Origin: Cenarchaeum sp. | GTDB lineage: Archaea; Thermoproteota; Nitrososphaeria; Nitrososphaerales; Nitrosopumilaceae | Length of the DNA stretch: 32,000 nt | Direction of reading: 5' to 3' | Assembly (NCBI GenBank): GCA_963692915.1 | Contig: OY843584.1 | Location: 531,134-563,133, forward strand | Shown here: piece by piece, positions 19,785 to 30,234 of the stretch | Position numbering within the stretch: the stretch's first letter is position 1 | How the letters are laid out: the number at the start of each line of letters is the position of its first letter | Notes under the pieces: generated by a model | The model's database searches: none | Seen by the model: the letters and a program-made list of their open reading frames with translations, nothing else | Told to the model about the DNA's origin: nothing | Made by a program: the position numbers and the translations under genes

Positions 19785-20069
19785 GTGCGTGCCAGGAGTA
19801 ACCCTCCTTCTGTTCTGGCGACATTTGGCTATGCGGCCTACCCGAGCCTGCTGCAGGGTGCTGGGGCTCTGTCTGGCCTTGCTCCGCGCGGGACAGCCGT
19901 TCCATTCCGGCTCCGGAAACCTCAGGCACAGCCGTCACGGTGCGCCGGGCCGGATTCGTTTCTGTTCTGTTGCCGGCCATCTCTGGCCACCCATCTCCGG
20001 GTCGCGCTCCCTGCGTGGAGGGAGGAGTTTCCTCTGCGTTAGCAGCGTGTCGCTCTCTGGCTCGCACGC
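19785..20069 (-). ncRNA. rnpB: RNase P RNA (type A-like)
   Basis: The minus-strand read contains CAGAGGAAACUCCUCCCUCCACGCAGGG (CR-I, compare GAGGAAAGUCC). It also has GGCGCACC, CGCGGAGCAAGGCCAGACAGAGCCCC (compare GGAGCAAGGCCAAAUAGGGG) and GCUCGGGUAGGCCGC (compare CCGGGUAGGCUGC). Near the 3' end is ACAGAAGGAGGGUUAC (CR-V, compare ACAGAACCCGGCUUA). The 5' GCGUGC pairs with the 3' GCACGC (P1). TATA GATATAC (rc of 20091-20098) is 27 nt upstream. Ends are good to +/- 5 nt. Confidence 0.85.
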
Positions 20070-20090
20070 CCAAGGCCTGCACGAGGGGGC

Positions 20091-20098
20091 GTATATCG
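20091..20098 (-). promoter_or_regulatory. TATA box of the RNase P RNA gene
   Basis: CGATATAC on the minus strand, about 27 nt upstream of the inferred 5' end at about 20068. Confidence 0.5.
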
Positions 20099-20133
20099 CT
20101 ATCTCTGCACGCTAGAGCGTATTCTGTACTTTC

Positions 20134-20309
20134 AAATACTTAACAGTTGAGGGACGATGTACGATCAAATACTTAACAGTTGAGGGACGATGTACGATCA
20201 AATACTTAACAGTTGAGGGACGATGTACGATCAAATACTTAACAGTTGAGGGACGATGTACGATCAAATACTTAACAGTTGAGGGACGATGTACGATCAA
20301 ATACTTAAC
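20134..20309. repeat. Tandem direct repeat: 5 perfect copies of a 33-bp unit plus an 11-bp partial copy
   Basis: Unit AAATACTTAACAGTTGAGGGACGATGTACGATC at 20134, 20167, 20200, 20233 and 20266. Partial AAATACTTAAC at 20299-20309. A degenerate partial (GTATTCTGTACTTTC) lies at 20119-20133. No spacers. Confidence 0.98.
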
Positions 20310-20385
20310 TATATTTTATACATTTTTTATGCTTAAAAACTTTTAGACATGAAATTTGGAATAATATATAAACCAATTTGCATGC

Positions 20386-21912
20386 ATGACTGACATGAGC
20401 GCCGGACCCTGGACACCACAGTTGCTGCGAGACGTGAATCCGTGGTGGGAGCTGCCAGACGTGATACGGCAGGATCGTGAGGTTAGGGCATGGCGTGATT
20501 CAGGTGAGCGCTATCGGCCTGCGCTCATGGGCGAGATGACGCTTGACTTTGAGTCTGATATGCAGGTGATCTACACGGTTCGAGGATCGCGCCAGGTGGG
20601 CAAGACGACAATGGTAAAGCTGCAGATCATGGATCTCCTGGATCAGGGGGTGGAACCGCAACGTTTGCTCTACTATTCGTTTGGCCCGCGTGCAACGCTT
20701 GACGAACTGTACGATGTCCTGCTGGGATACCTGCGCCTGAGCGAACGTGTCCGCGGTGATCGTAGATGCTACATATTTCTCGATGAAATATCATATGTGC
20801 CAAAATGGCAAGAGGGACTAAAGGAGATCTCCAACATGGGACGCCTGGCAAATTGCACCATCGTGGCAACCGGCTCAAATGCCACTGACTTGACACGCGC
20901 AACTGAGACGCTTACGGGTCGTCTGGGGCTTGTTGAGGATGGAAACCACAAATCACTCCTTCCAATGCGCTTTAGGGAGTTTGTGTCAATTATGAACACC
21001 GATTTGTCTAAACTTATCACCTCTCACGGCCTCTCTGAGCATGATCGGGCGCATTCTGTGTTTATGGACATCGCCACTGGATCCAATAATGAAGTTCTGA
21101 ATCGGCTAGAGCTCCATATGACCGACCTGGATGTGCTTTTCATGCAATACATGGTGTGGGGTGGAATACCACATGTGGCAAACATGTGTCCCAATGGCAT
21201 ACCAAATCCGCTGTACAGGACATACTTGGATGGCATATTGCATGAATGGAAATTTCTTGGATACTCGATTGATTCACTACGCGGCCTTGCGCCACATCTC
21301 GTGGATAGTGCGGGAAGCACTTTTTCGTGGAACAGCATGGCAGATGCGCTCTTGTGCTCCCGTCAGGAGTCCAAAGACCGCCTATGCGCGCTGCGTGACA
21401 TGTATGTGATCTCGGTTATGGATAACTATAACGTGCATGGCAAGATTGCGCACCACCGCAAGTCCAAAAAGCTGCACTTTCGAGATCCGCTCTTTTACCA
21501 CATCTTTGCCACGTTGTCTGGCAAACGCTCCTCTCCGTTTGAGCAGAGCAAGGCATGCGTGGACGATCCCACTATTCGTGGCAAGGTGGCCGAGTGTGTG
21601 ATGGCCGATCACCTCTCTCGCTTTGCCTACTCTGCATCGGTTCGAAAAGCGCTCTTTGATCCGTCCGATTATGTTTACTATTGGAAGTCGGGGAGACACG
21701 AGGTGGACTTTGTGTATATTGGAAGCGATAACATCCCAATTCCAATTGAGGTAAAGTATCGCTCCAAGATCAACCACAAAAACTTTGACGGCATGGCAGA
21801 GTTTCTAAACGTTAGCGGCGCGGGGCGTGGAATTGTTGCCACACGACGAGAGTATGACATTCGGCGCGACTATGCGCTTGTTCCGCTGCCGATGCTGCTA
21901 ATGCTGATGTGA
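20386..21912 (+). CDS. AAA+ ATPase (COG1373/AAA_14-like) fused to a DUF4143-type PD-(D/E)xK nuclease-like C-terminus
   Basis: Walker A GSRQVGKTT. Walker B CYIFLDEISY. C-terminal GRHEVDFVYIGSDNIPIPIEVKYRSK (E-x-D...E-x-K). An AT-rich promoter region contains AATATATAAA (20363-20372). The second ATG at 20395 fits the 28-nt TATA spacing better. Confidence 0.8.
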   Translation: MTDMSAGPWTPQLLRDVNPWWELPDVIRQDREVRAWRDSGERYRPALMGEMTLDFESDMQVIYTVRGSRQVGKTTMVKLQIMDLLDQGVEPQRLLYYSFGPRATLDELYDVLLGYLRLSERVRGDRRCYIFLDEISYVPKWQEGLKEISNMGRLANCTIVATGSNATDLTRATETLTGRLGLVEDGNHKSLLPMRFREFVSIMNTDLSKLITSHGLSEHDRAHSVFMDIATGSNNEVLNRLELHMTDLDVLFMQYMVWGGIPHVANMCPNGIPNPLYRTYLDGILHEWKFLGYSIDSLRGLAPHLVDSAGSTFSWNSMADALLCSRQESKDRLCALRDMYVISVMDNYNVHGKIAHHRKSKKLHFRDPLFYHIFATLSGKRSSPFEQSKACVDDPTIRGKVAECVMADHLSRFAYSASVRKALFDPSDYVYYWKSGRHEVDFVYIGSDNIPIPIEVKYRSKINHKNFDGMAEFLNVSGAGRGIVATRREYDIRRDYALVPLPMLLMLM

Positions 21913-21946
21913 TTGCCGGCGCACATGATTGGCTGATGCTAGCCGG

Positions 21947-22453
21947 TCAGTTGAGTATCTTTAGGCTTCGGCACACCGCGTACAGGTTGCGCCTGAGGTT
22001 CTTGTCAAGCAGCGTCTCCATCTTTTGGCGGAGGCGAACCTTTGCGCGCTCGCGCTCGGCGCCGTCAGGCAGCGAGAGGACCTCGTTTATCAGCTCGGGG
22101 AGCGACTCACGAACCCACGCGTCGAGTATGGCATAGTCGCGCGGCGATATTGGCACAACGTCAGGCCCCTCGTCGAGGACTCCGGTGAACGGCTCGTGCT
22201 CTATGCGGTATATCAGGGCAAACACACAGTTTTCTGGCGTGGGCTCGCGGAGTATCTCCTCTGACCTCGAGCCGGCCTTTCCCTGCGCGACCTTGTTGCG
22301 CAGGCCCACGGGATCGATGAGCGCGCCGTTCACGCCTATCCTCCTGCCGTCGACTCCGGTCGCCACTCCCACAAAACACCTGACCGTCTCGCCGTCACGC
22401 ACGCGCGCAAAGACGTGCGTTCCCTCGGAGATCCCGCGCTTTTTGCCAAACAT
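21947..22453 (-). CDS. Hypothetical protein (168 aa)
   Basis: ORF 21947..22756. ATG 22453 (MFGKKRGISEGTHVFARV...) is 27 nt downstream of ATTAAATAC (rc of 22475-22483). High-GC codon usage like the host. No family recognised. Confidence 0.5.
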   Translation of the reverse strand: MFGKKRGISEGTHVFARVRDGETVRCFVGVATGVDGRRIGVNGALIDPVGLRNKVAQGKAGSRSEEILREPTPENCVFALIYRIEHEPFTGVLDEGPDVVPISPRDYAILDAWVRESLPELINEVLSLPDGAERERAKVRLRQKMETLLDKNLRRNLYAVCRSLKILN

Positions 22454-22661
22454 TGCGCTAGTGCCGGCGCGTTTGTATTTAATCGCTCGCCGCACGGGGC
22501 GTTGTTTCATAACCACGCCTAGGTGCCATCCACGCAGGCCCCGCCCCGAGCGAGGCGCGTGGCTGCCGCGACCGAAACACAAATGGATCGGCTCGCGGGC
22601 AGGCAACGCGTTGGCCGGCGAAGCGGATGCAAAGTACGTTGACAGGGGAAGGATACTCGTC

Positions 22662-23250
22662 ATGCCCGCCAGCACGGAGGTCGCGCGGCGCGAGCTCGCC
22701 GAGGCGAGCAGGAAAAAGCCCGGCAGACCGTTCCTCTGCCCGAAGTCGCTCGTCATCCAGCTCGCCCTGGTGCGCGCCCTGTTCGGCGTCTGCCACAGGG
22801 AGCTGGAGGAGCTCCTCGCCGAGTCCCTGCACGGCGAGTTTGGTATCGGGTTCGTCCAGATATGGCGCAGGGTGTCGGGGTCGACGTCGGGTTCTCATCG
22901 CGCGACGGCTTGTTCACGTTCAACAACTCGCTCACCAGCGACGCCGGGGAAACCGAGGTCGCGTTTGACGGCACGGCCTCAGGTAGGGAGGAGCGGCGCG
23001 TGGAAGCTGGAGAAGTGGAAGGTTCGTTTCGGCTTCGTCAGGCTCACGCTGGCAGTCCACGCCGAGGACAAGATGATCATCGCCATGACGGTGACGGGCG
23101 ACGCGACGTCGAAACTCTCGCAGTTCCCAAAGCTGCTGCGCGCGGTGGTGGACGCGCGCGCAGTTCGTCAGGACGCGTGGCAGCCATCGTCGAGGAGCTG
23201 GGCAAACAACGCGAGGTACAGCAGGCAGCATCAGAAAAATATCGACGATC
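22662..23250 (+). pseudogene. IS5/IS4-like DDE transposase remnant (frameshifted, C-terminally truncated)
   Basis: Frame A reads MPASTEVARRELAEASRKKPGRPFLCPKSLVIQLALVRALFGVCHRELEELLAESL...FVQIWRRV. Frame B (from 22862) reads ...ETEVAFDGTASG. The reading returns to frame A with GAWKLEKWKVRFGFVRLTLAVHAEDKMIIAMTVTGDATSKLSQFPKLL. This is the IS5-type order (GRP..., xDxTG, W.KlH.avD...i....T....D...LL) split over two frames. No distal D/E region is present. Confidence 0.45.
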
Positions 23251-23889
23251 ATGTCGACGCCCGAGTTTGTCGAACGCTCTAAACATCTTGAGGCGCTTGA
23301 AAAGTTAGGTGCCGAACGAACCGCACTTGATCTGGAGATAGGCGGATCATTTACAAGGATAAGCCATCCACTCTCAAAGTACGTCTATGTCACTTCACTT
23401 GACAAAGAAAAAAAAACCGTAATGGCCAGGATGCTTGCCGAGCCGGCGGTTGCCCTGCGCGAGTCCGGCCCTGACATTGTGCTTGACATACTTGTTCACG
23501 TCAGAAAGGCAGTCTCATCAGCATCCGTCTCCGTAAAGGACATATCGAAATCCGAGGAACAGATAGACGCAGTGTCTGCCGGTCTTGGGGAGTTTGTCTC
23601 GCGCATGGCGTCACTGGAGGAGCGCAAGGGCGAGATTGCCGAGCGCGTTCGCTCCTTTGACTCCTCGCAGCTTGACTCTGCGCGCGCAACGCTCGAGCGA
23701 GCCACGTCTGACATTGTGGCACTAGAGTCGCGCGAGCGCGAGATTCGGGCCGATGCCGTGGCCGCCGAGGCCGAGATTCCCTCGGCCCTCAAGGCGCTAG
23801 AGTCGCGCATGCGAGCCGTGACGTCAGTCGCGTACACCTTCGGATGCCTGACGCCTAGCAATCGGGTTTTGCAGGATGGCCAGATCTAG
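23251..23889 (+). CDS. Hypothetical coiled-coil protein
   Basis: 212-aa ORF with long heptad-like, Glu/Arg/Ala-rich stretches (EERKGEIAERVRSF..., ESREREIRADAVAAEAE...). No family recognised. Confidence 0.5.
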   Translation: MSTPEFVERSKHLEALEKLGAERTALDLEIGGSFTRISHPLSKYVYVTSLDKEKKTVMARMLAEPAVALRESGPDIVLDILVHVRKAVSSASVSVKDISKSEEQIDAVSAGLGEFVSRMASLEERKGEIAERVRSFDSSQLDSARATLERATSDIVALESREREIRADAVAAEAEIPSALKALESRMRAVTSVAYTFGCLTPSNRVLQDGQI

Positions 23890-24116
23890 TAGTGTCACAC
23901 TTTGCCGTACGGGCGCTGCTGTGACGGCATTAGCAGGCGTCATGGCGGTAGCCGTCAACATCCGCTCTAAATATCTCATGCCGTGATCATGTTTTGTCAT
24001 TATACCCCCTAACTTTTTGTGATTTTGGGCGTTTTTCACACTTTTTCAAGGGGTATTTGATCACTGTTCAAAAACCAAATGATTTTACCTTTCTTTATAT
24101 ACTCATTTGGCATTTC

Positions 24117-24124
24117 TTTATAAA
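24117..24124 (+). promoter_or_regulatory. TATA box (TTTATAAA) of the GHKL-ATPase/NTase operon
   Basis: Centre is 28 nt upstream of TTG 24149. It lies in a ~250-bp AT-rich gap. A second box CTTTATATAC is at 24093-24102. Confidence 0.5.
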
Positions 24125-24148
24125 GAGATAGTGGCCTGACTGGCACGG

Positions 24149-26002
24149 TTGACCCAGCACAAGATTGACGTAACACCGGACAAGAGCCTCATCAAGAAGC
24201 TGGGGAGTGTAGGGTACCGAACCGAGCAGGCCATAGCAGAACTGATTGACAACTCTATCGACGCCCGCCTAGACGGTACGCTAGAGACGATCAGGATAGT
24301 CTTGGACTTTGCGAATCGAACGATTTCTGTCCGTGACGACGGCGCCGGAATGGATCTGGGTGCACTCAGGAACTCGTGGGTGCTTGGAGCACACTCAAAG
24401 TCATCAAACTCGAGCCTTGGCATGTTTGGAATTGGCATGAAGAGCGCATGCTCAGCCCTGGGCAAGTCGTTTTCGGTCAGGACAACAACTGCGGGTTCCA
24501 CGGCTGAACTTTACGCAAAATATGATGAAGATGAGTGGCTTGGAAGTTCAGGAGGGTGGGATGACTTTGAGGTTACTGAAACCCCCGCTGATGCAGATAC
24601 GCACGGAACAGAAGTCGTCGTGTCAAAGATCAATGTCGCGCTTTATCGTGCACAGGCTGCACAATTTCGAAAGCGCTTTGGAACACGCTATGCCCAGCAT
24701 ATGTTGGATCAACAAATAAAGATCACTGTCAACAACAAGCCATGCAGACCAATTGAGCCAGATATTGACTATAAAACCAAAAAAAACCTTGACATTTCCC
24801 TGTCTGATGGTAATCGCATCCATGGGTGGATTGCGCTTTTACGTCAATATTCAGTCAAGGGCGATTATGGGTTTAACCTGTATCAAAACAGTAGACTAAT
24901 CAGCTCTCACGCCAAATTTGGAATTCGTTACCATCCGGCAGTATCTCGTGTGGTTGGAAATCTGCATTTGGATCATGTCCCAGTAAATGTTCTTAAAACC
25001 GGGTTTTTGCCTGACACATACGAATATGCACAATCTTTTAAAGCAATTGAGAACGATCCGACTGTCAAAAAACTCATCAATGAGTCTGAACCTCATGAAA
25101 AATTTAGTAGTGACTATGCCTCTGTTTTCAGAAATGATGTGCCACCGACAAAAATTCCACGTATTGGAGATGTGAACGCCTCTCGTTTGCTTCGCAATAT
25201 GATCTCTGTGGATGTACTTGACACTGCGTCTCCTCGTATGGCGCTGGAGGATTGTGACACTGGGGTGTACCGCATTGAAGGTAGTGGCGACGAAACAAAA
25301 GTCATTGTTAATCGACAAAGTGCCGTGTTTCGGGCATTTAAAAATCCGCTGTTTTTGTTGGGAATGTTGCGTCTTGAAGCTCAAACTCTATCCGGTCATT
25401 CTGAAGCACAGCGTCTAATCACAAAAAGAAACAAAACATGGGAACAGTTTGTGGATTCACACTCTATTAATCGTGATATCAAACGTATAGGATCCAATGA
25501 CACATTGCCCAATAATCTTGTGAAGCTGCGTAGTTCAATTATGGGAGAGTTTTCAGAGCGGTTCCAGTTTACGGCTCTATCGATCTTGTGGCCACATCTC
25601 ATTAACGCATATCGTATATTGCCCTACACAGTATATGTTGCGCGAGGTTACGGCCAACTGTTAAAACATGTTGTATCGCAACAGAGTGGTTATCACGCAA
25701 TTTTAAATCCTGACCCTGGACAGGTGCATCAAATACTGGAAGCACGAGATGGCGGGGCACTCGTGATAATACGTGAGCGATCTGATGTGCCCAAGTTAAC
25801 TGCTGCATCGTATGCCAAAGCTTGGGTTGATCTATTTGTCGAGATACGACACGAACGTGTTGGAGTTTATGAAGAAGAGCTTGAGATGCTGTGGGATCTT
25901 GAGGACCACAGCTTGCTTACTATGAACCAAGTACTTTCATATGCGAAACGCCGCAGTGTTGCACAAGAGGTGGCTAAATACACTGGGGATGACACCACGT
26001 GA
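24149..26002 (+). CDS. GHKL-superfamily ATPase, HATPase_c_3 / MORC-paraMORC-like, with an uncharacterised ~300-aa C-terminal region
   Basis: Bergerat-fold motifs AIAELIDNSIDA (N box), SVRDDGAGMD (G1) and LGMFGIGMKSA (G2). MORC-like middle segment GNRIHGWIALLRQYSVKGDYGFNLYQNSRLIS...RVVGNLHLDHVPVNVLKTGF. TTG start, with an in-frame TGA 12 nt upstream. Lower GC than the flanks. Confidence 0.8.
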   Translation: MTQHKIDVTPDKSLIKKLGSVGYRTEQAIAELIDNSIDARLDGTLETIRIVLDFANRTISVRDDGAGMDLGALRNSWVLGAHSKSSNSSLGMFGIGMKSACSALGKSFSVRTTTAGSTAELYAKYDEDEWLGSSGGWDDFEVTETPADADTHGTEVVVSKINVALYRAQAAQFRKRFGTRYAQHMLDQQIKITVNNKPCRPIEPDIDYKTKKNLDISLSDGNRIHGWIALLRQYSVKGDYGFNLYQNSRLISSHAKFGIRYHPAVSRVVGNLHLDHVPVNVLKTGFLPDTYEYAQSFKAIENDPTVKKLINESEPHEKFSSDYASVFRNDVPPTKIPRIGDVNASRLLRNMISVDVLDTASPRMALEDCDTGVYRIEGSGDETKVIVNRQSAVFRAFKNPLFLLGMLRLEAQTLSGHSEAQRLITKRNKTWEQFVDSHSINRDIKRIGSNDTLPNNLVKLRSSIMGEFSERFQFTALSILWPHLINAYRILPYTVYVARGYGQLLKHVVSQQSGYHAILNPDPGQVHQILEARDGGALVIIRERSDVPKLTAASYAKAWVDLFVEIRHERVGVYEEELEMLWDLEDHSLLTMNQVLSYAKRRSVAQEVAKYTGDDTT

Positions 26003-27087
26003 TTGTTGATGGTCTAACTAGACGTGATCTCAAGTCAAGAACTACTAAATTTGGTTTTGCTGACTCGGGCTATCTTGAAAAGTTTATGATGGATTTTGAT
26101 GCCTACATTGCACTATCTAATGTGAGAAAATGTTATGTTCGTGGAGGCATGTGTGTGCCTTTTTATGTTGATTCTAAACATCGCCGTTTCAGTAAAGATC
26201 TAGATGTATATGTGACTTGTTCAGTTGACGAGATCATCGAAAAAGTTTCTGCTGCATTGTTGGATGTGGGATTTACGCGTGTTACGCCCTATAATCATCG
26301 TGGCAATCAGTCTATGATGAATAACTGGGTTCGTTTTAAGGCTTCCTATGTTCCCGTGGGCTCTTCGGATCATCCATCTGCTTCTAGTCAACAAGATTCA
26401 ATATCTGTTGATATCACATGTGGGATTGATGCTGCTCAGCTTGACACTACTCTCCTAGAACAAGAGCAAAATTTATTTGACTTTAAAATACCGCCTCCAA
26501 TTCACACACTTTCTAGAGGGGCGCTTATCGCAGACAAAATTACTTCACTGGGGTGTGGGCCTGTGGGATATCCTACGCCTGCAGGACGTTCTAAGCCTTT
26601 GGGATATTCTGAGCCTGAACCTACGCCAAAGCAGATCTATGATATTGGCATGCTGCTGCGCAAAACAACAACCGATGATCTTATTATTATGGTACAGATG
26701 TACAATTATTTAACAAATTTTAAATTAACAAACGGAAATCGCAATTTTGGACTAGCGAAAGTAATTCAAAGCGTTAAATCATATATTTCTACCATTTTAA
26801 CAAATGACACCTTACCTCGGCTGACCAGCGCACACAGCGATCATTTTTTCATTTTTTCTCACAGTATGCTTTCAAAACCCCATATTGACGAAGTTGAACA
26901 TTCAAAAAATATCATGTTGACTTTACTCTGTGCAGACTTTCTTGAACGTTCTCTTGATGCCTCTGCCTCAAATGAACAATTGGCTGAACGTATGCAAGAT
27001 ACACTCGATGCTGCATTTGAACTTGAAATACTTGAAGACCAGATATCGTATTTAAAGCGACATGTTGAGGGTATGGGCTCACCTTGA
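25999..27087 (+). CDS. AbiEii/AbiGii (DUF1814)-like nucleotidyltransferase
   Basis: GTG 25999 overlaps the upstream stop (GTGA). Motifs: GYLEKFMMDFDAYIAL, YVRGGMCVPFYVDSKHRRFSKDLDVYV (GG...RFS-x-DxD), DSISVDITCG, LIADKITSLG...PKQIYDIGMLL (compare aeKi.A...R..kgRDlyDl..l). AT-rich codon usage. Confidence 0.7.
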   Translation: MIVDGLTRRDLKSRTTKFGFADSGYLEKFMMDFDAYIALSNVRKCYVRGGMCVPFYVDSKHRRFSKDLDVYVTCSVDEIIEKVSAALLDVGFTRVTPYNHRGNQSMMNNWVRFKASYVPVGSSDHPSASSQQDSISVDITCGIDAAQLDTTLLEQEQNLFDFKIPPPIHTLSRGALIADKITSLGCGPVGYPTPAGRSKPLGYSEPEPTPKQIYDIGMLLRKTTTDDLIIMVQMYNYLTNFKLTNGNRNFGLAKVIQSVKSYISTILTNDTLPRLTSAHSDHFFIFSHSMLSKPHIDEVEHSKNIMLTLLCADFLERSLDASASNEQLAERMQDTLDAAFELEILEDQISYLKRHVEGMGSP

Positions 27088-27310
27088 CAATTTTGCCACA
27101 TCGGACATCTTACCGCTGTGGTGGGCGTGTCCTGTCTCGAACATTTTCACGCATGCCGTTTCTTGCAAACGTGCGGAGTCTGGCGGCCATGTTTTCTGGA
27201 TCCTGCTAGATTGACATGGTGCCCTGCCGCCTGTCGACTCCAATACTGACGCGTGGTCATGGCACATCGCCATGAGTGCAGTTAAATCCAGCCACGTGTG
27301 CCTGCTGCGC

Positions 27311-28138
27311 ATGAACCTCGTGGCCTCTGGCAAGGTAAAGGACGTCTATGACGCCGGTGACGGCCTCTTGAGATTTCACTTTAGTGACCGTGTCTCGGCA
27401 TATGACGTAAAGTTTGTCGAGCCGATCCCAAAAAAGGGTGAAATTCTCTGCAAGTTTGCCGAGTTTTGGTTTGGCGAGCTTGGGGTGCCTAGCCACTTTG
27501 TTCGGCGTGTCTCGGACACTGACATGCTCGTTAGGCGAATGAAGATGCTGCCGATCGAGTGTGTCGCACGGGGGTATCTGTATGGCAGCCTCTATGACCG
27601 TCATCTGCGTGGCGAGTCAGGACTCCGGCTTGATGACGAACGCCACGCGGCCAGGCTGCCTGAGGCAATATTTGACCCAACCACAAAGGCCGAGCACGAC
27701 GAGCCTGTGACGCGCGACTCGGCAATCCGTATGGGCCTTGTGAGCGCCGCTCAATATGACTCCCTAGAGTCAATGACGCTAAAGATATACGGCCAGATGG
27801 CATCAGTGGCAGAGCGTGCGGGATTTGTCATGGCTGACCTAAAGCTGGAGTTTGGCATGCTTGGTGGGAAGATTGTCCTGGGCGACTCTATTGGGCCAGA
27901 CGAGTTTCGGATGTGGCCATCAGAGTCATACGAGCCCGGACGCGTGCAGGACGCATATGACAAGCAGATACTGCGCGACTGGCTGGCCGCCGGCGGTCAC
28001 AAGGACAGATTTGAGCGCGAACGCGCCGCCGGAGAGGCGCCACGGCCGCCGATGATACCGTCAGAGATTATCGGCACAATGACGGGGCGCTATGTTGACG
28101 CCTATGAGCGCATAACGGGCAGGCCGCTAGACGCATAG
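27311..28138 (+). CDS. purC: SAICAR synthetase (phosphoribosylaminoimidazole-succinocarboxamide synthase)
   Basis: [14 protein letters not shown]..., [24 protein letters not shown] and ADLKLEFG resemble PurC. ATG 27311 is 27 nt downstream of GTTAAATC (27281-27288). The ORF track starts at 27272. Confidence 0.9.
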
Positions 28139-28393
28139 CCTAGCGCCATGGGCCATTGTTGGGTTCTCAGAATGCCAATCTGCCGTGATGCTTCCATGCG
28201 GGGGCTAGATTGCGTGCCTTTCTTGCCTGTATTCATGCGTGCATAGGGAGATCCTGGCAGTTCGTGACCTCATATTGGCTGTGTGAGCATGCCGACTATG
28301 CGTAAAGACTCTAATCGTACTCCCAGGCGCGCCGGCGCTGATGCCCATTGTGCCTCAACGTGCCGCCGGAGCGCCGCCACAGTGGCGATCCGG

Positions 28394-28596
28394 TTATTTC
28401 CAATATCCATTGTATCATTTCATAACAAATCATATTATTATGATATATATCATTAGTCTTAATTCTAATGTTAGCATTATAAGATATTTCCTATTACAAC
28501 TATATGTATCGTATAATAGGGATATTATTCAGTTTCCTATTATCAATATCATTCAAATGAATAATAGTGCTCTAATTCTAATAAGTGTAAACTAGA
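28394..28596. other. Extremely AT-rich ~200-bp non-coding block with reiterated short motifs
   Basis: The composition switches abruptly from GC-rich flanks. TTTCCTATTA occurs at 28487 and 28533, with an inverted TCCCTATTA (rc of 28514-28522) between them. A related TATTTCCAATATCC is at 28395. AATTCTAAT occurs at 28461 and 28574. ATATCATT-like words occur three times. Confidence 0.9.
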
Positions 28597-28658
28597 CTCT
28601 ATGCGAGCGGTCAAAAAATGCTGATCTTTCCCACTTTTGGCCTGGTGGGACGCACGGG

Positions 28659-29186
28659 ATGCCGATGGAGACACTGGTAGACCGCCCTGTCAGCGTGACG
28701 AGGACTATAGCGTCGAGTCCTGATGAGGCAAGCGCGATAGCGGATCCCGTGAGGGCAGCCATAGTCGCGCTCCTCTATCGCCGGACGCTGACGGCCGAGC
28801 AGATATTCGAGCGTCTAGGCAGGCGTGGCAAGAAAAAGGCGCTCACGACGGTGCGCCACCACATCGACGTCCTCCGCTCCGCCGGCCTAGTGGACATTGT
28901 GAAGGTCGTAGAGTCTCGAGGAGGAGTGACAAAGCACTATGGAACCTCCACGAGGCTCCTCATGCAGAACCCCCAGGATGATTTTGACGAGCAGCACTCG
29001 GATGCCATTGCAGCTGCAACCGTTGGCCTTGCGGCCGTCATAGAGTCAGCAGGCGCGAACATTGCGCCAAAGGATGGCAAAAAACGCGTTGATCCGGCGC
29101 ACAGACACTATGTCGTCGCCGAGATACTAAACCGCGCAATGACTGCGGCCATGGAGCGTGGCTCGCGCGCACCGTCAGGGTCATAG
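28659..29186 (+). CDS. ArsR-family winged-helix transcriptional regulator
   Basis: IADPVRAAIVALLYRRTLTAEQIFERLG....TTVRHHIDVLRSAGLVDIV matches the ArsR/SmtB HTH pattern, followed by a ~90-aa C-terminal extension. Confidence 0.75.
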   Translation: MPMETLVDRPVSVTRTIASSPDEASAIADPVRAAIVALLYRRTLTAEQIFERLGRRGKKKALTTVRHHIDVLRSAGLVDIVKVVESRGGVTKHYGTSTRLLMQNPQDDFDEQHSDAIAAATVGLAAVIESAGANIAPKDGKKRVDPAHRHYVVAEILNRAMTAAMERGSRAPSGS

Positions 29187-29290
29187 CCTGCTGACATGGC
29201 CGGAGGCGTGCCCAGTCGGCGATTATGGGCACGGGAACCCCTCTTGCGCCTGTCTGGTGGGCGCATGTGCTGTATGGGGCGCATTTGGCA

Positions 29291-29316
29291 TATTTCTAAA
29301 CTCGAGTTTAGAAATA
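29291..29316. repeat. 26-bp perfect palindrome TATTTCTAAACTCGAGTTTAGAAATA (copy 1)
   Basis: Self-complementary over all 26 nt. 24 nt are identical to copy 2 at 29769-29792. It lies 105 nt downstream of the ArsR stop. Confidence 0.97.
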
Positions 29317-29768
29317 CATAATTTGTGACCATGCGCGCCTCGCAGACTCGTGTATGTGCCCCATGGCCATGTTACGCACAAGAGCTAAACCCCCCTGTGG
29401 GGGGAGCCGGTTCACGAGGGAGTCCATTTTTCTGAAAATGGCCGATCTGGAGGGGGGTTGAGCACCCACGCCTAGATCGGACAGACAACGCTCAAACCAT
29501 GGGGCTAGCTGTCCTGCGGGTGCCCCGTTGTGCAATGTCATGCCTAAAAGCTAAACCCCGTGATCTTTGCCGTTCAGGTGGTGGCTCGGTCCACAGATCT
29601 TCGCGCATGGCCGGCTGACGTGTGTCAGACGCGCCAGGATGGGCATAAATGACGCATGAGCCCACCCCCCGCACCCATGCTGCGCGCCGCCGCACAATCA
29701 TGCTGGCGCTGTTGTGGCACATGTGGCCAGGCGCAGTCTCGCGCTGGGCTGCCATGTGCGATATTGTG

Positions 29769-30157: not shown

Positions 30158-30234
30158 TGGCGCCGCCCGACAGACTTGAACTGTCGACCAACGGATTAAC
30201 AGTCCGTTGCTCTACCACGCTGAGCTAGGGCGGC
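30158..30234 (-). tRNA. tRNA-Asn (anticodon GUU), CCA encoded
   Basis: Manual fold: GCCGCCC-UA-GCUC-AGCGUGGUA-GAGC-A-ACGGA-CUGUUAA-UCCGU-UGGUC-GACAG-UUCAAGU-CUGUC-GGGCGGC-G-CCA (77 nt). All stems are Watson-Crick. TATA TTAAAT (rc of 30260-30265) is 28 nt upstream of the 5' end. Confidence 0.95.

Follow-up and report, generated by a model that had tools for sequence, protein, structure and literature searches.

The 32,000-nucleotide (nt) stretch analyzed here, called the window throughout (contig OY843584.1, positions 531,134 to 563,133, assembly GCA_963692915.1), comes from an archaeon, a Cenarchaeum-like member of the Nitrosopumilaceae, and carries a two-gene cassette encoding a predicted MORC-type ATPase (gene 1) and a predicted nucleotidyltransferase (NTase) of the MenT/AbiEii family (gene 2). 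The features of the cassette are collected in Table 1. Gene 1 has 46.0% guanine plus cytosine (GC) and gene 2 39.8%, against 58.4% for the remainder of the window, so that the cassette forms a 44% GC patch within a 58% GC archaeal genome; the 259-nt gap upstream of gene 1 is similarly poor in GC (42.9%). The stop codon of gene 1 and the start codon of gene 2 overlap, an arrangement consistent with translational coupling of the two putative proteins. A preliminary description of this DNA had reported the 4-nt overlap, the AT-richness of both genes relative to their flanks, an AT-rich gap of ~250 base pairs with a box 28 nt before the TTG start, a complete Bergerat ATP-binding set and a MORC-like middle segment in gene 1, an AbiEii signature in gene 2, and an archaeal host; all of these observations hold. 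An exact look-up of the gene 1 protein from the window returned no record.

Table 1. Features of the ATPase/NTase cassette and its promoter in the window (aa, amino acids; domains are numbered on gene 1, motifs on gene 2)
Feature	Coordinates	Strand	Description or basis
Promoter region with two TATA-like boxes	24094..24126	+	Sequence and homologous loci
Gene 1	24149..26002	+	TTG start, 617 aa: MORC-type GHKL ATPase, S5, linker and DUF6577
GHKL (Bergerat) ATP-binding domain, aa ~20-165	24206..24643	+	HATPase_c_3, invariant columns
S5-fold transducer domain, MORC type, aa ~190-300	24716..25048	+	Morc6_S5, PDB profile matches, Foldseek
Linker/unassigned region, aa 301-440	25049..25468	+	Residues 316-360 predicted with low confidence
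DUF6577-like alpha/beta domain, aa ~441-612	25469..25984	+	Pfam family matches, hhalign
GTGA, gene 2 start codon overlapping gene 1 stop codon	25999..26002	+	Sequence
Gene 2	25999..27087	+	GTG start, 362 aa: MenT/AbiEii (DUF1814) nucleotidyltransferase with C-terminal helical extension
Active-site motif R63-F-S65-K66-D67-L-D69, catalytic aspartates	26185..26205	+	Invariant columns, MenT4/JHP933 alignment
Motif-IV-like NTP-binding elements D179-K180 (IADKITSL), K211...D215 (PKQIYD)	26533..26646	+	Invariant columns

What kind of ATPase does gene 1 encode? The protein matches Pfam HATPase_c_3 (3.3e-17, 63 bits against a cutoff of 25), as had been expected of it, and the Bergerat residues E31, N35, D63, G67, G91, F93, G94, G96, K98, G153 and T154 are invariant in 24 homologs. 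They are laid out as motif I (E31/N35, the catalytic Glu and the Mg-binding Asn), motif II (D63-x-G65-x-G67) and motif III (G91-x-F93-G94-x-G96-x-K98), followed by G153-T154. The Morc6_S5 domain is found in 23 of the 24 family members (best 2.3e-7), with G226, W227, G238, G241, R249, F257, G258, H262, P263, N280, K283 and T284 among its invariant residues. When the family profile was compared with the PDB, the best matches were human MORC4, MORC3 and MORC2, each in two stretches corresponding to GHKL and S5; the first aligns to 'AIAELLDNAVD' of MORC4 and MORC3, and the second to MORC4 residues 301-357 and MORC3 residues 310-348. The structure model of gene 1 (mean predicted local distance difference test score, pLDDT, 77) was compared by Foldseek, in which MORC4 gave the best root-mean-square deviation (rmsd), 5.4-5.7 A over ~370 columns, and MORC2 and SMCHD1 were also found; full-length Hsp90/TRAP1 alignments ranked top at an rmsd of 16-19 A and were given no weight. 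The PDB profile matches, the family-wide occurrence of Morc6_S5 and the MORC4 superposition support a MORC-like assignment. The N-terminal half of gene 1 is thus a GHKL plus S5 module of the MORC type with intact catalytic residues, for which ATPase activity and dimerization are predicted.

Gene 2 matches Pfam AbiEii (PF08843) over aa 44-228 (1.6e-8, 35.2 bits, gathering cutoff 22.5). Residues R63, S65, D67, D69, D179, K180, K211 and D215 are invariant in 28 sequences, while G49, G50 and D138 are kept in at least 90% of them; the Pol-beta-type NTase motifs (GG, R-x-S/T-x-D-x-D, a third acidic residue and motif IV) are thus all present. S65 is present in 28/28 sequences of one alignment and in 20/20 of another. 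The first 29 residues are likewise conserved across the family (E27 in at least 90%; alignment of 28 homologs), which supports the GTG start. Using the AlphaFold model (pLDDT 86; predicted template modeling score 0.88), the best 14 PDB matches in Foldseek are all MenT3/TglT, MenT1, JHP933 or MenT4, with E-values of 4e-6 to 1e-4, a probability of 1.0 and template modeling scores of ~0.45-0.6 (target-normalized 0.52-0.63). Sequence searches of the PDB with gene 2 alone and with the 28-sequence profile returned chance matches only, and the link to MenT is therefore drawn from the fold comparison and from a canonical AbiEii intermediate, through which RFSKDLDV of gene 2 aligns with RFSTDLDF of MenT4 and RFSEDLDF of JHP933. 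The motif spacing equals that of MenT3 R76/S78/K79/D82 and puts S65 at the position of the MenT3 phospho-serine S78. From these alignments and the model, gene 2 is predicted to be an NTase of the MenT/AbiEii type with an intact catalytic site; it belongs to a long subfamily and is extended at its C-terminus by ~70-80 aa of helical structure.

MenT1 and MenT3 add pyrimidines to the 3' CCA ends of tRNA, which blocks translation, and MenA1, MenA3 and AbiEi neutralize their toxins by inducing auto-phosphorylation at an active-site Ser/Thr (PMC11375011; bioRxiv 10.64898/2026.01.19.700257). The equivalents of S65 at this phospho-site are MenT3 S78, AbiEii T65 and SanaT S65, and a Ser or Thr occupies it in all Conserved Domain Database matches checked for two related families, DUF2253 and DUF4849 (same sources).

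The preliminary description recognized nothing in the last ~300 aa of gene 1. This remains true of the linker, which carries a conserved motif (F394, F397, N399, P400, L401 ... E410), but not of the last ~170 aa, which belong to DUF6577. The C-terminal region is conserved in the 24 homologs and is modeled as a well-folded alpha/beta domain (aa ~455-612); scanned alone, 13 of the 24 family C-terminal regions match Pfam DUF6577 (PF20217; best 3.7e-7). Searched exhaustively by HMMER with aa 361-617 as the query, 1.84 billion representatives yielded only 50 proteins: fusions of ~620-680 aa, shorter proteins aligned over most of the query that are probably fragments of the fusion family, and small proteins (229-272 aa) whose alignment is confined to the last ~160 aa. 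Ten of these small proteins were scanned; nine contain DUF6577 (eight with scores above the Pfam cutoff), an AbiEi_4 winged helix-turn-helix (wHTH) stands at the N-terminus of four, and others match TrmB- or MarR-type wHTH domains. Aligned by hhalign, the fusion C-termini and the standalone wHTH-DUF6577 proteins are homologous with a probability of 100% (E 2.2e-39, 166 columns, gene 1 aa ~449-614).

The genes of the standalone proteins lie directly upstream of genes of 368-379 aa, which match Pfam AbiEii at loci L045 and L050/L051; at L047 the gene 3' of wHTH-DUF6577 encodes 370 aa and is unannotated. A 4-nt overlap joins the two genes at L045 and L047, and the L045 NTase aligns with the gene 2 family over 360 columns (probability 99.95%). 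No wHTH or AbiEi family was detected in any of the 24 gene 1 homologs at E-values up to 1-10. Since its C-domain is homologous to that of wHTH-DUF6577 proteins encoded upstream of the same NTase subfamily, gene 1 is an antitoxin-slot protein whose wHTH has given way to a MORC ATPase, S5 and linker. Gene 1 thus contains the antitoxin-slot domain rather than merely substituting for it, which makes the cassette a variant of the AbiE/MenAT family and not an unrelated system. Known MenA antitoxins are diverse (PMC11375011), and an antitoxin role for DUF6577 is therefore plausible. The metagenomic contig of L047 (804-5916) also carries, 1.5 kb 5' of wHTH-DUF6577 and its long NTase-sized gene, a pair of the conventional type (AbiEi_4, 273 aa; AbiEii, 279 aa), and both antitoxin types appear to coexist there side by side.

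Is the pairing of the two genes conserved? The gene 1 family comprises more than 449 full-length clusters at 37-56% identity, mostly annotated as 'ATP-binding proteins' of Nitrososphaerota. Sampling by GHKL sequence patterns in GTDB species-representative genomes yielded 42 loci, 40 with a full-length GHKL gene; nearly all come from Nitrosopumilaceae, Nitrosopumilus or Cenarchaeum metagenome-assembled genomes (MAGs), often with two to three per genome. Hidden Markov models (HMMs) of both families were built and run against all open reading frames (ORFs) of these loci. The GHKL gene is followed at once by an intact NTase in 25 of 40 loci; the median gap between the two is 0 nt, six junctions have a 4-nt overlap and 22 of the 25 lie within 10 nt. 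Reciprocally, each of the three distant NTase relatives examined (23-30% identity) is directly preceded by a GHKL gene that overlaps it by 4 nt, and this overlap is seen in the GHKL/NTase pairs of L052, L054 and L056. The claim that a GHKL ATPase occupies the slot of the antitoxin or regulator is thereby upheld and refined by the presence of DUF6577 within the ATPase gene itself. Word-index searches for NTase homologs returned 13-22 proteins only; they under-represent the family, given the 25 of 40 loci in which the HMM detected an NTase. No third gene was found to accompany the pair consistently, and its surroundings change from one locus to the next.

Only NTase fragments were found in 4 of 40 loci and no NTase was detected in 11, among them L038, which retains a short remnant resembling the NTase N-terminus; behind an intact-looking ATPase gene, the NTase is broken or missing in about one third of loci. 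An NTase without its partner was never seen among the loci examined. Orphan ATPases and decayed NTases in the absence of lone NTases are the pattern expected if the toxin is a dispensable or dangerous partner. Several genomes carry two or three copies at dispersed sites. Cassettes also form tandem arrays of two or three copies that are divergent from one another: a pair, an orphan ATPase and a second pair at L052/L053 (2571-10551), two full pairs at L056/L057 (2425-8981), and an ATPase with a 30-aa remnant followed by a pair at L054 (279-6140).

Several individual loci deserve mention. Those listed with NTase fragments after an intact-looking ATPase gene are L006, L009, L020, L032 and L038, and those listed without an NTase are L002, L005, L012, L016, L021, L023, L028, L030 and L043. 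The second paralog of the window genome (P0068, 38% identity) is an orphan ATPase, its context being taken from L002, a contig of another sample with an identical protein. Two orphan ATPases have neighbors that, read from their sequences by eye, suggest a defense-island context: a 781-aa ATPase-like protein at L030 (8500-10845) and a DGQHR/DndB-like protein with an INDGQHR motif at L043 (9871-10914). A complete cassette at L018 (CBDCTF010000004.1) sits on a contig that binning assigned to a Dehalococcoidia bacterium, all others being from Nitrososphaerota; it reflects either cross-domain transfer among sponge or marine symbionts or a binning error.

The box before the TTG start is TATA-like. 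It reads TTTATAAA (24117-24124), is separated from the TTG by 24 nt and is centered ~28 nt upstream of it; a further TATA-like box, TTTATATA, lies at 24094-24101. Most of the 24 homologous loci examined also have a TATA-like box ~25-34 nt 5' of the start, a spacing that implies leaderless mRNAs and suggests that the gene 1-gene 2 transcript may be one. A perfect 12-nt palindrome, TCTTTATAAAGA, at 24115-24126 encloses box TTTATAAA and forms an inverted repeat across it (TCTTTA/TAAAGA). Of the 24 loci, 16 have inverted repeats with arms on either side of the TATA box, compared with a null rate of 0.35-0.375 (p ~0.001-0.004, ignoring relatedness), among them L008, L011, L013, L015, L017, L019, L024, L031, L033, L037 and L040, and two standalone wHTH-DUF6577 loci, L045 and L047, have the same promoter appearance. 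The arms vary by locus and remain complementary (TTGCGAA/TTCGCAA, TCCGGAA/TTCCGGA, GAGAA/TTCTC, TGTAAA/TTTACA, GGAATA/TATTCC), which looks like compensatory change. These repeats suggest an autoregulatory operator, as in AbiE, at the promoter of a gene whose product has no recognizable DNA-binding domain.

How long has the cassette resided at its site? The Cenarchaeum sp. MAG OY843768, a sister genome, has the same pair in the same place with an identical GTGA overlap, and at both sites the cassette is followed by purC (SAICAR synthase), an HTH_20 gene and an archaeal ribosomal-protein operon. The public call of the sister NTase (L001, 7914-9002) begins at an internal ATG and gives 333 aa; with the N-terminal 29 residues and the overlap both conserved, this call is too short and the 362-aa GTG form is real. 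The upstream gene is also present on L004, a more distant Cenarchaeum contig, and on contig L029 purC lies downstream of a truncated GHKL gene. From this synteny, the cassette is an old resident of the site and not a recent insertion. There are no flanking direct repeats or att-like sites around 24000-27100 and no tRNA adjoins the cassette, the sole tRNA of the window being tRNA-Asn at 30158-30234; on these grounds, on the synteny and with no relatives found on IMG/VR viral contigs, a recent insertion or mobile element was rejected. The preliminary description spoke of a 'low-GC insert', which was correct as to composition but overstated recency, as the sister genome has the cassette at the same site and its GC content is below that of the flanks in 34 of 40 loci.

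Divergence rises stepwise along the cassette. Protein identity with the sister genome is 96-98% for the flanks, 94.3% for the ATPase and 84.5% for the NTase; with L004, the corresponding values are 70%, 53% and 37%. Over the 25 pairs, mean pairwise distances rise from the ATPase (0.45) and S5 (0.47) to DUF6577 (0.62), the linker (0.70) and the NTase (0.70), the last two being the fastest-diverging parts of the cassette. NTase distances correlate more strongly with those of the C-terminal half of gene 1 (r 0.88-0.91) than with those of the ATPase/S5 (0.79-0.82), and the partial correlation with DUF6577, controlling for GHKL, is 0.60, compared with 0.24 for GHKL when DUF6577 is controlled for. 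The stronger co-variation with the C-terminal half would fit a physical partnership between it and the NTase.

One of the known systems closest to the cassette is AbiE, an abortive-infection system (type IV, recently reclassified as a type VII toxin-antitoxin (TA) system). Both are bicistronic with overlapping genes, place the regulator upstream of a DUF1814/AbiEii NTase with the same four motifs, including RFS-x-DLD, keep the Ser/Thr phospho-acceptor position and have an inverted repeat in the promoter. The upstream protein of the cassette differs in its length of 617 aa, in having a MORC-type GHKL plus S5 ATPase in place of a wHTH, and in its DUF6577 C-domain, which shows no detectable homology to the COG5340 AbiEi C-domain. 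Gene 1 is thus not a COG5340/AbiEi antitoxin in the sense of a wHTH joined to an AbiEi C-domain, and AbiEi_4 occurs only in the relatives of its C-domain. The MenAT systems of Mycobacterium tuberculosis (MenA3/MenT3, also TakA/TglT; MenT1; MenT4) supply the best structural matches of gene 2, with identical R/S/K/D spacing, and a precedent for unrelated antitoxins that neutralize through induced auto-phosphorylation. However, gene 2 shares only 12-15% sequence identity with them, lacks a PDB sequence match even with the family profile, and is ~70-80 aa longer than MenT3/MenT4/AbiGII-type chains, with a helical C-terminal extension; MenA antitoxins are small and lack an ATPase. The wHTH(AbiEi_4)-DUF6577/AbiEii pairs (L045, L047, L050/L051) have a homologous DUF6577, the same long NTase subfamily and the same 4-nt overlap geometry, and differ in an N-terminus of ~55 aa of wHTH instead of the ~440 aa of ATPase, S5 and linker in gene 1.

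For the ATPase, parallels come from elsewhere. VcSduA of Vibrio cholerae is a GHKL ATPase fused to a Shedu nuclease, in which the ATPase is required for the defense effector; variants designed against ATP hydrolysis (E27A) or the nuclease were made, and the authors hypothesize that the ATPase controls the effector (PMC12137116). As in gene 1, a GHKL module is attached to a component of a conflict system, but the VcSduA effector is a PD-(D/E)xK nuclease in the same polypeptide, whereas the cassette fuses the ATPase to the inhibitor-slot domain and keeps the NTase effector separate. Gene 1 has the GHKL plus S5 module and MORC-like motifs in common with MORC/paraMORC ATPases and lacks their CW, coiled-coil or other chromatin-reader domains. 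In 2008 prokaryotic MORCs were linked to restriction-modification genes, with no NTase partner mentioned and only three archaeal MORCs found (PMC2292703). The N-terminal ~150 aa of gene 1 also match the GHKL domain of MzaB from the MZA anti-phage system (PADLOC 7.8e-9; NCBIfam 2.2e-12). Identity with MzaB was rejected at 46 bits against an equivalog cutoff of 850, with profile positions 2-150 of 480 covered, and no other Mza genes are near the cassette, whose neighbors are purC, the HTH_20 gene and unassigned genes.

PADLOC-DB v2 and NCBIfam gave only this MzaB-like match and AbiEii for the pair and no system match, in agreement with the preliminary description, which recognized no named defense or TA system. 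Both genes match the HMMs expected of them, their homologs are neighbors in other genomes, and the acidic catalytic residues of the NTase are in place. In the searchable literature no description was found of AbiE components that are paired with a GHKL/MORC ATPase or fused to one, nor any paper mentioning DUF6577. Both halves of the cassette belong to known kinds and its logic is that of AbiE/MenAT; the putatively ATP-driven combination is undescribed.

What, then, might this combination do? We consider it probable, though by no means assured, that the cassette is a self-contained TA-type conflict module of the AbiE/MenAT lineage with a rebuilt antitoxin, acting in ATP-gated toxin-antitoxin control or abortive infection. 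Both genes would be co-transcribed from the TATA-box promoter and translationally coupled. By analogy with MenT1/MenT3 and AbiEii, free gene 2 NTase would add nucleotides to tRNA 3' ends and arrest translation, and gene 1 would be its cognate controller, an ATP-dependent antitoxin or regulator. The DUF6577 domain may bind the NTase and keep it off, most likely through induced auto-phosphorylation of S65, as MenA3 and AbiEi do. With the N-terminal wHTH of the ancestral antitoxin replaced by the MORC-type GHKL plus S5 ATPase, neutralization would have become dependent on an ATP-driven dimerization or clamp cycle, in line with the ATP-driven sensor or clamp suggested in the preliminary description, and a trigger, be it foreign nucleic acid or protein or the depletion of ATP, might free the toxin and lead to dormancy or abortive infection. 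The use of an ATPase as a switch has a precedent in VcSduA (PMC12137116). Paralogous cassettes, tandem arrays, orphan and decayed genes, low GC and graded divergence are signatures of conflict systems and speak for this interpretation, as do the domain identities and intact catalytic residues of both proteins, their conserved adjacency, the DUF6577 homology and the co-variation of the NTase with the C-terminal half of gene 1.

A number of points weigh against it. Toxicity, neutralization, phosphorylation, the tRNA target and antiviral activity are properties that we infer for the cassette, and the antitoxin role of DUF6577 is deduced from architecture and operon position. In the window protein itself, Morc6_S5 (14.6 bits against a cutoff of 26.2, E 0.035) and DUF6577 (12.6 bits against 27.8, E 0.11, profile positions 18-198 of 204) both score below cutoff, so that these assignments hold at the level of the family profiles. 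DUF6577 and the conventional AbiEi C-domain give an hhalign probability of 2%; in sequence searches of the PDB the fusion C-domain profile had no matches, and the standalone profile only wHTH matches. Shared descent and the wider dynamic range of segments that evolve fast confound the co-variation of DUF6577 and the NTase. With 11 of 40 GHKL genes lacking an NTase, the ATPase is able to persist by itself, perhaps in an independent role. No recognizable mobility genes flank the cassette copy of the window, and no family copies were found on IMG/VR viral contigs. Finally, Streptococcus agalactiae AbiE gave no phage protection in Escherichia coli (bioRxiv 10.64898/2026.01.19.700257), so a defense role is not guaranteed for the family.

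How far can the function of the ATPase be narrowed down? It is possible, if on balance doubtful, that the MORC ATPase is an infection or stress sensor, whose clamp cycle on foreign nucleic acid, or collapse at low ATP, would move DUF6577 and toggle S65 phosphorylation of a tRNA-tailing toxin, the whole being a type VII-like immune module. We think it rather unlikely that the cassette is instead an addiction or selfish TA module without an immune role, in which MORC replaces the wHTH for DNA binding and promoter repression and no invader is sensed. Such a role would accord with the autoregulation of AbiEi antitoxins through promoter inverted repeats (PMC7319586), with the locus-specific complementary arms at the TATA box in 16 of 24 loci and two standalone wHTH-DUF6577 promoters, with DNA binding by MORC-family ATPases (e.g., the MORC2-DNA structure 9cdh), with the result for S. 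agalactiae AbiE and with the stable synteny beside purC in related genomes. Nevertheless, an ATPase portion of ~440 aa that is catalytically intact family-wide would be costly for plain operator binding, gene 1 showed no identifiable DNA-binding motif, the statistics for the inverted repeats are modest and ignore relatedness, and tandem diversified arrays and multiple paralogs per genome fit diversifying immune loci better.

Gene 1 might also be a GHKL-type protein serine kinase, like SpoIIAB/RsbW or PDK/BCK, that phosphorylates S65 of the NTase directly. The GHKL superfamily does include protein kinases, and S65 is invariant at the position of a known phospho-site. According to PMC7205606 and PMC11375011, MenA3/TakA was initially read as the kinase of MenT3 S78; current evidence favors auto-phosphorylation of the toxin (PMC11375011; bioRxiv 10.64898/2026.01.19.700257). 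The ATPase of gene 1 is MORC-like, with an S5 domain typical of dimerizing GHL ATPases and unlike kinase-type GHKLs, and an ATP-binding domain is missing from the standalone DUF6577 proteins that partner the same NTase subfamily, so neutralization cannot in general need an external kinase. A kinase is accordingly improbable. Equally one might ask whether the pair is a toxin system at all, or whether the two proteins cooperate in nucleic-acid processing (RNA/tRNA 3'-end tailing, repair or the generation of a nucleotide signal), with the ATPase recruiting or remodeling the substrate. DUF1814 NTases are biochemically tRNA/RNA 3'-end tailing enzymes (PMC11375011), the family is widespread in one archaeal lineage with some copies syntenic beside housekeeping genes, and orphan ATPases exist. 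The distribution is patchy, however, with one to three or more paralogs in a genome that differ markedly from each other; these traits, like the tandem arrays, the frequent decay and rapid divergence of the NTase and the atypically low GC content, are not those of a housekeeping enzyme, and the closest relatives of both parts are TA components; we regard this possibility as very improbable.

The surroundings of the cassette have features of their own. Nucleotide identity with the sister genome is ~94% over 23141-29650, and synteny breaks off sharply at 23141. Of a 428-aa gene in the sister genome, the 212-aa ORF at 23251-23889 corresponds to the C-terminal 196 aa only; given the break and this partial match, the ORF is a 3' remnant and window positions ~20000-23140 are a strain-specific replacement or insertion. 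Within that segment, a 33-bp head-to-tail array of ~6-7 copies of GTACGATCAAATACTTAACAGTTGAGGGACGAT (20092-20342; inner copies 98% identical) lacks spacers and is therefore not a CRISPR (clustered regularly interspaced short palindromic repeats) array; it looks like an iteron or operator array. Directly 3' of it, a low-GC gene (20386-21912, 46-52% GC) encodes a 508-aa AAA_14 plus DUF4143 ATPase. On the other side of the cassette, a very AT-rich intergenic patch (28341-28595) lies upstream of the HTH_20/ArsR-type regulator gene (28659-29186), and its sole ORF, of low complexity, is probably spurious.

The cassette is a case of TA rewiring, in which the toxin and the toxin-facing domain appear to have been retained and the DNA-binding head of the antitoxin traded for an energy-consuming MORC ATPase, and it offers a natural test case for how nucleoside triphosphate (NTP)-driven switches are coupled to immune effectors. 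It also gives DUF6577, a domain without literature, a likely role as the partner domain of the long AbiEii/MenT subfamily. Prokaryotic MORC modules are related to the chromatin MORCs of eukaryotes, and the prokaryotic partners described for them so far were restriction-modification genes; in the cassette, the module comes with an output that is simple and can be assayed, namely NTase activity and the phosphorylation of a serine. In Nitrosopumilaceae and Cenarchaeum the family is abundant and occurs in multiple copies and in arrays. These archaea are nitrifiers of global importance; their conflict systems have been little charted, and work on their viruses is difficult. If the MORC ATPase does prove to be a sensor, gene 1 would be the first ATPase-gated antitoxin of the AbiE/MenAT family and would provide a direct biochemical readout of prokaryotic MORC function, and the tandem diversifying arrays would represent a major unrecognized immune family of marine and sponge-associated ammonia-oxidizing archaea.

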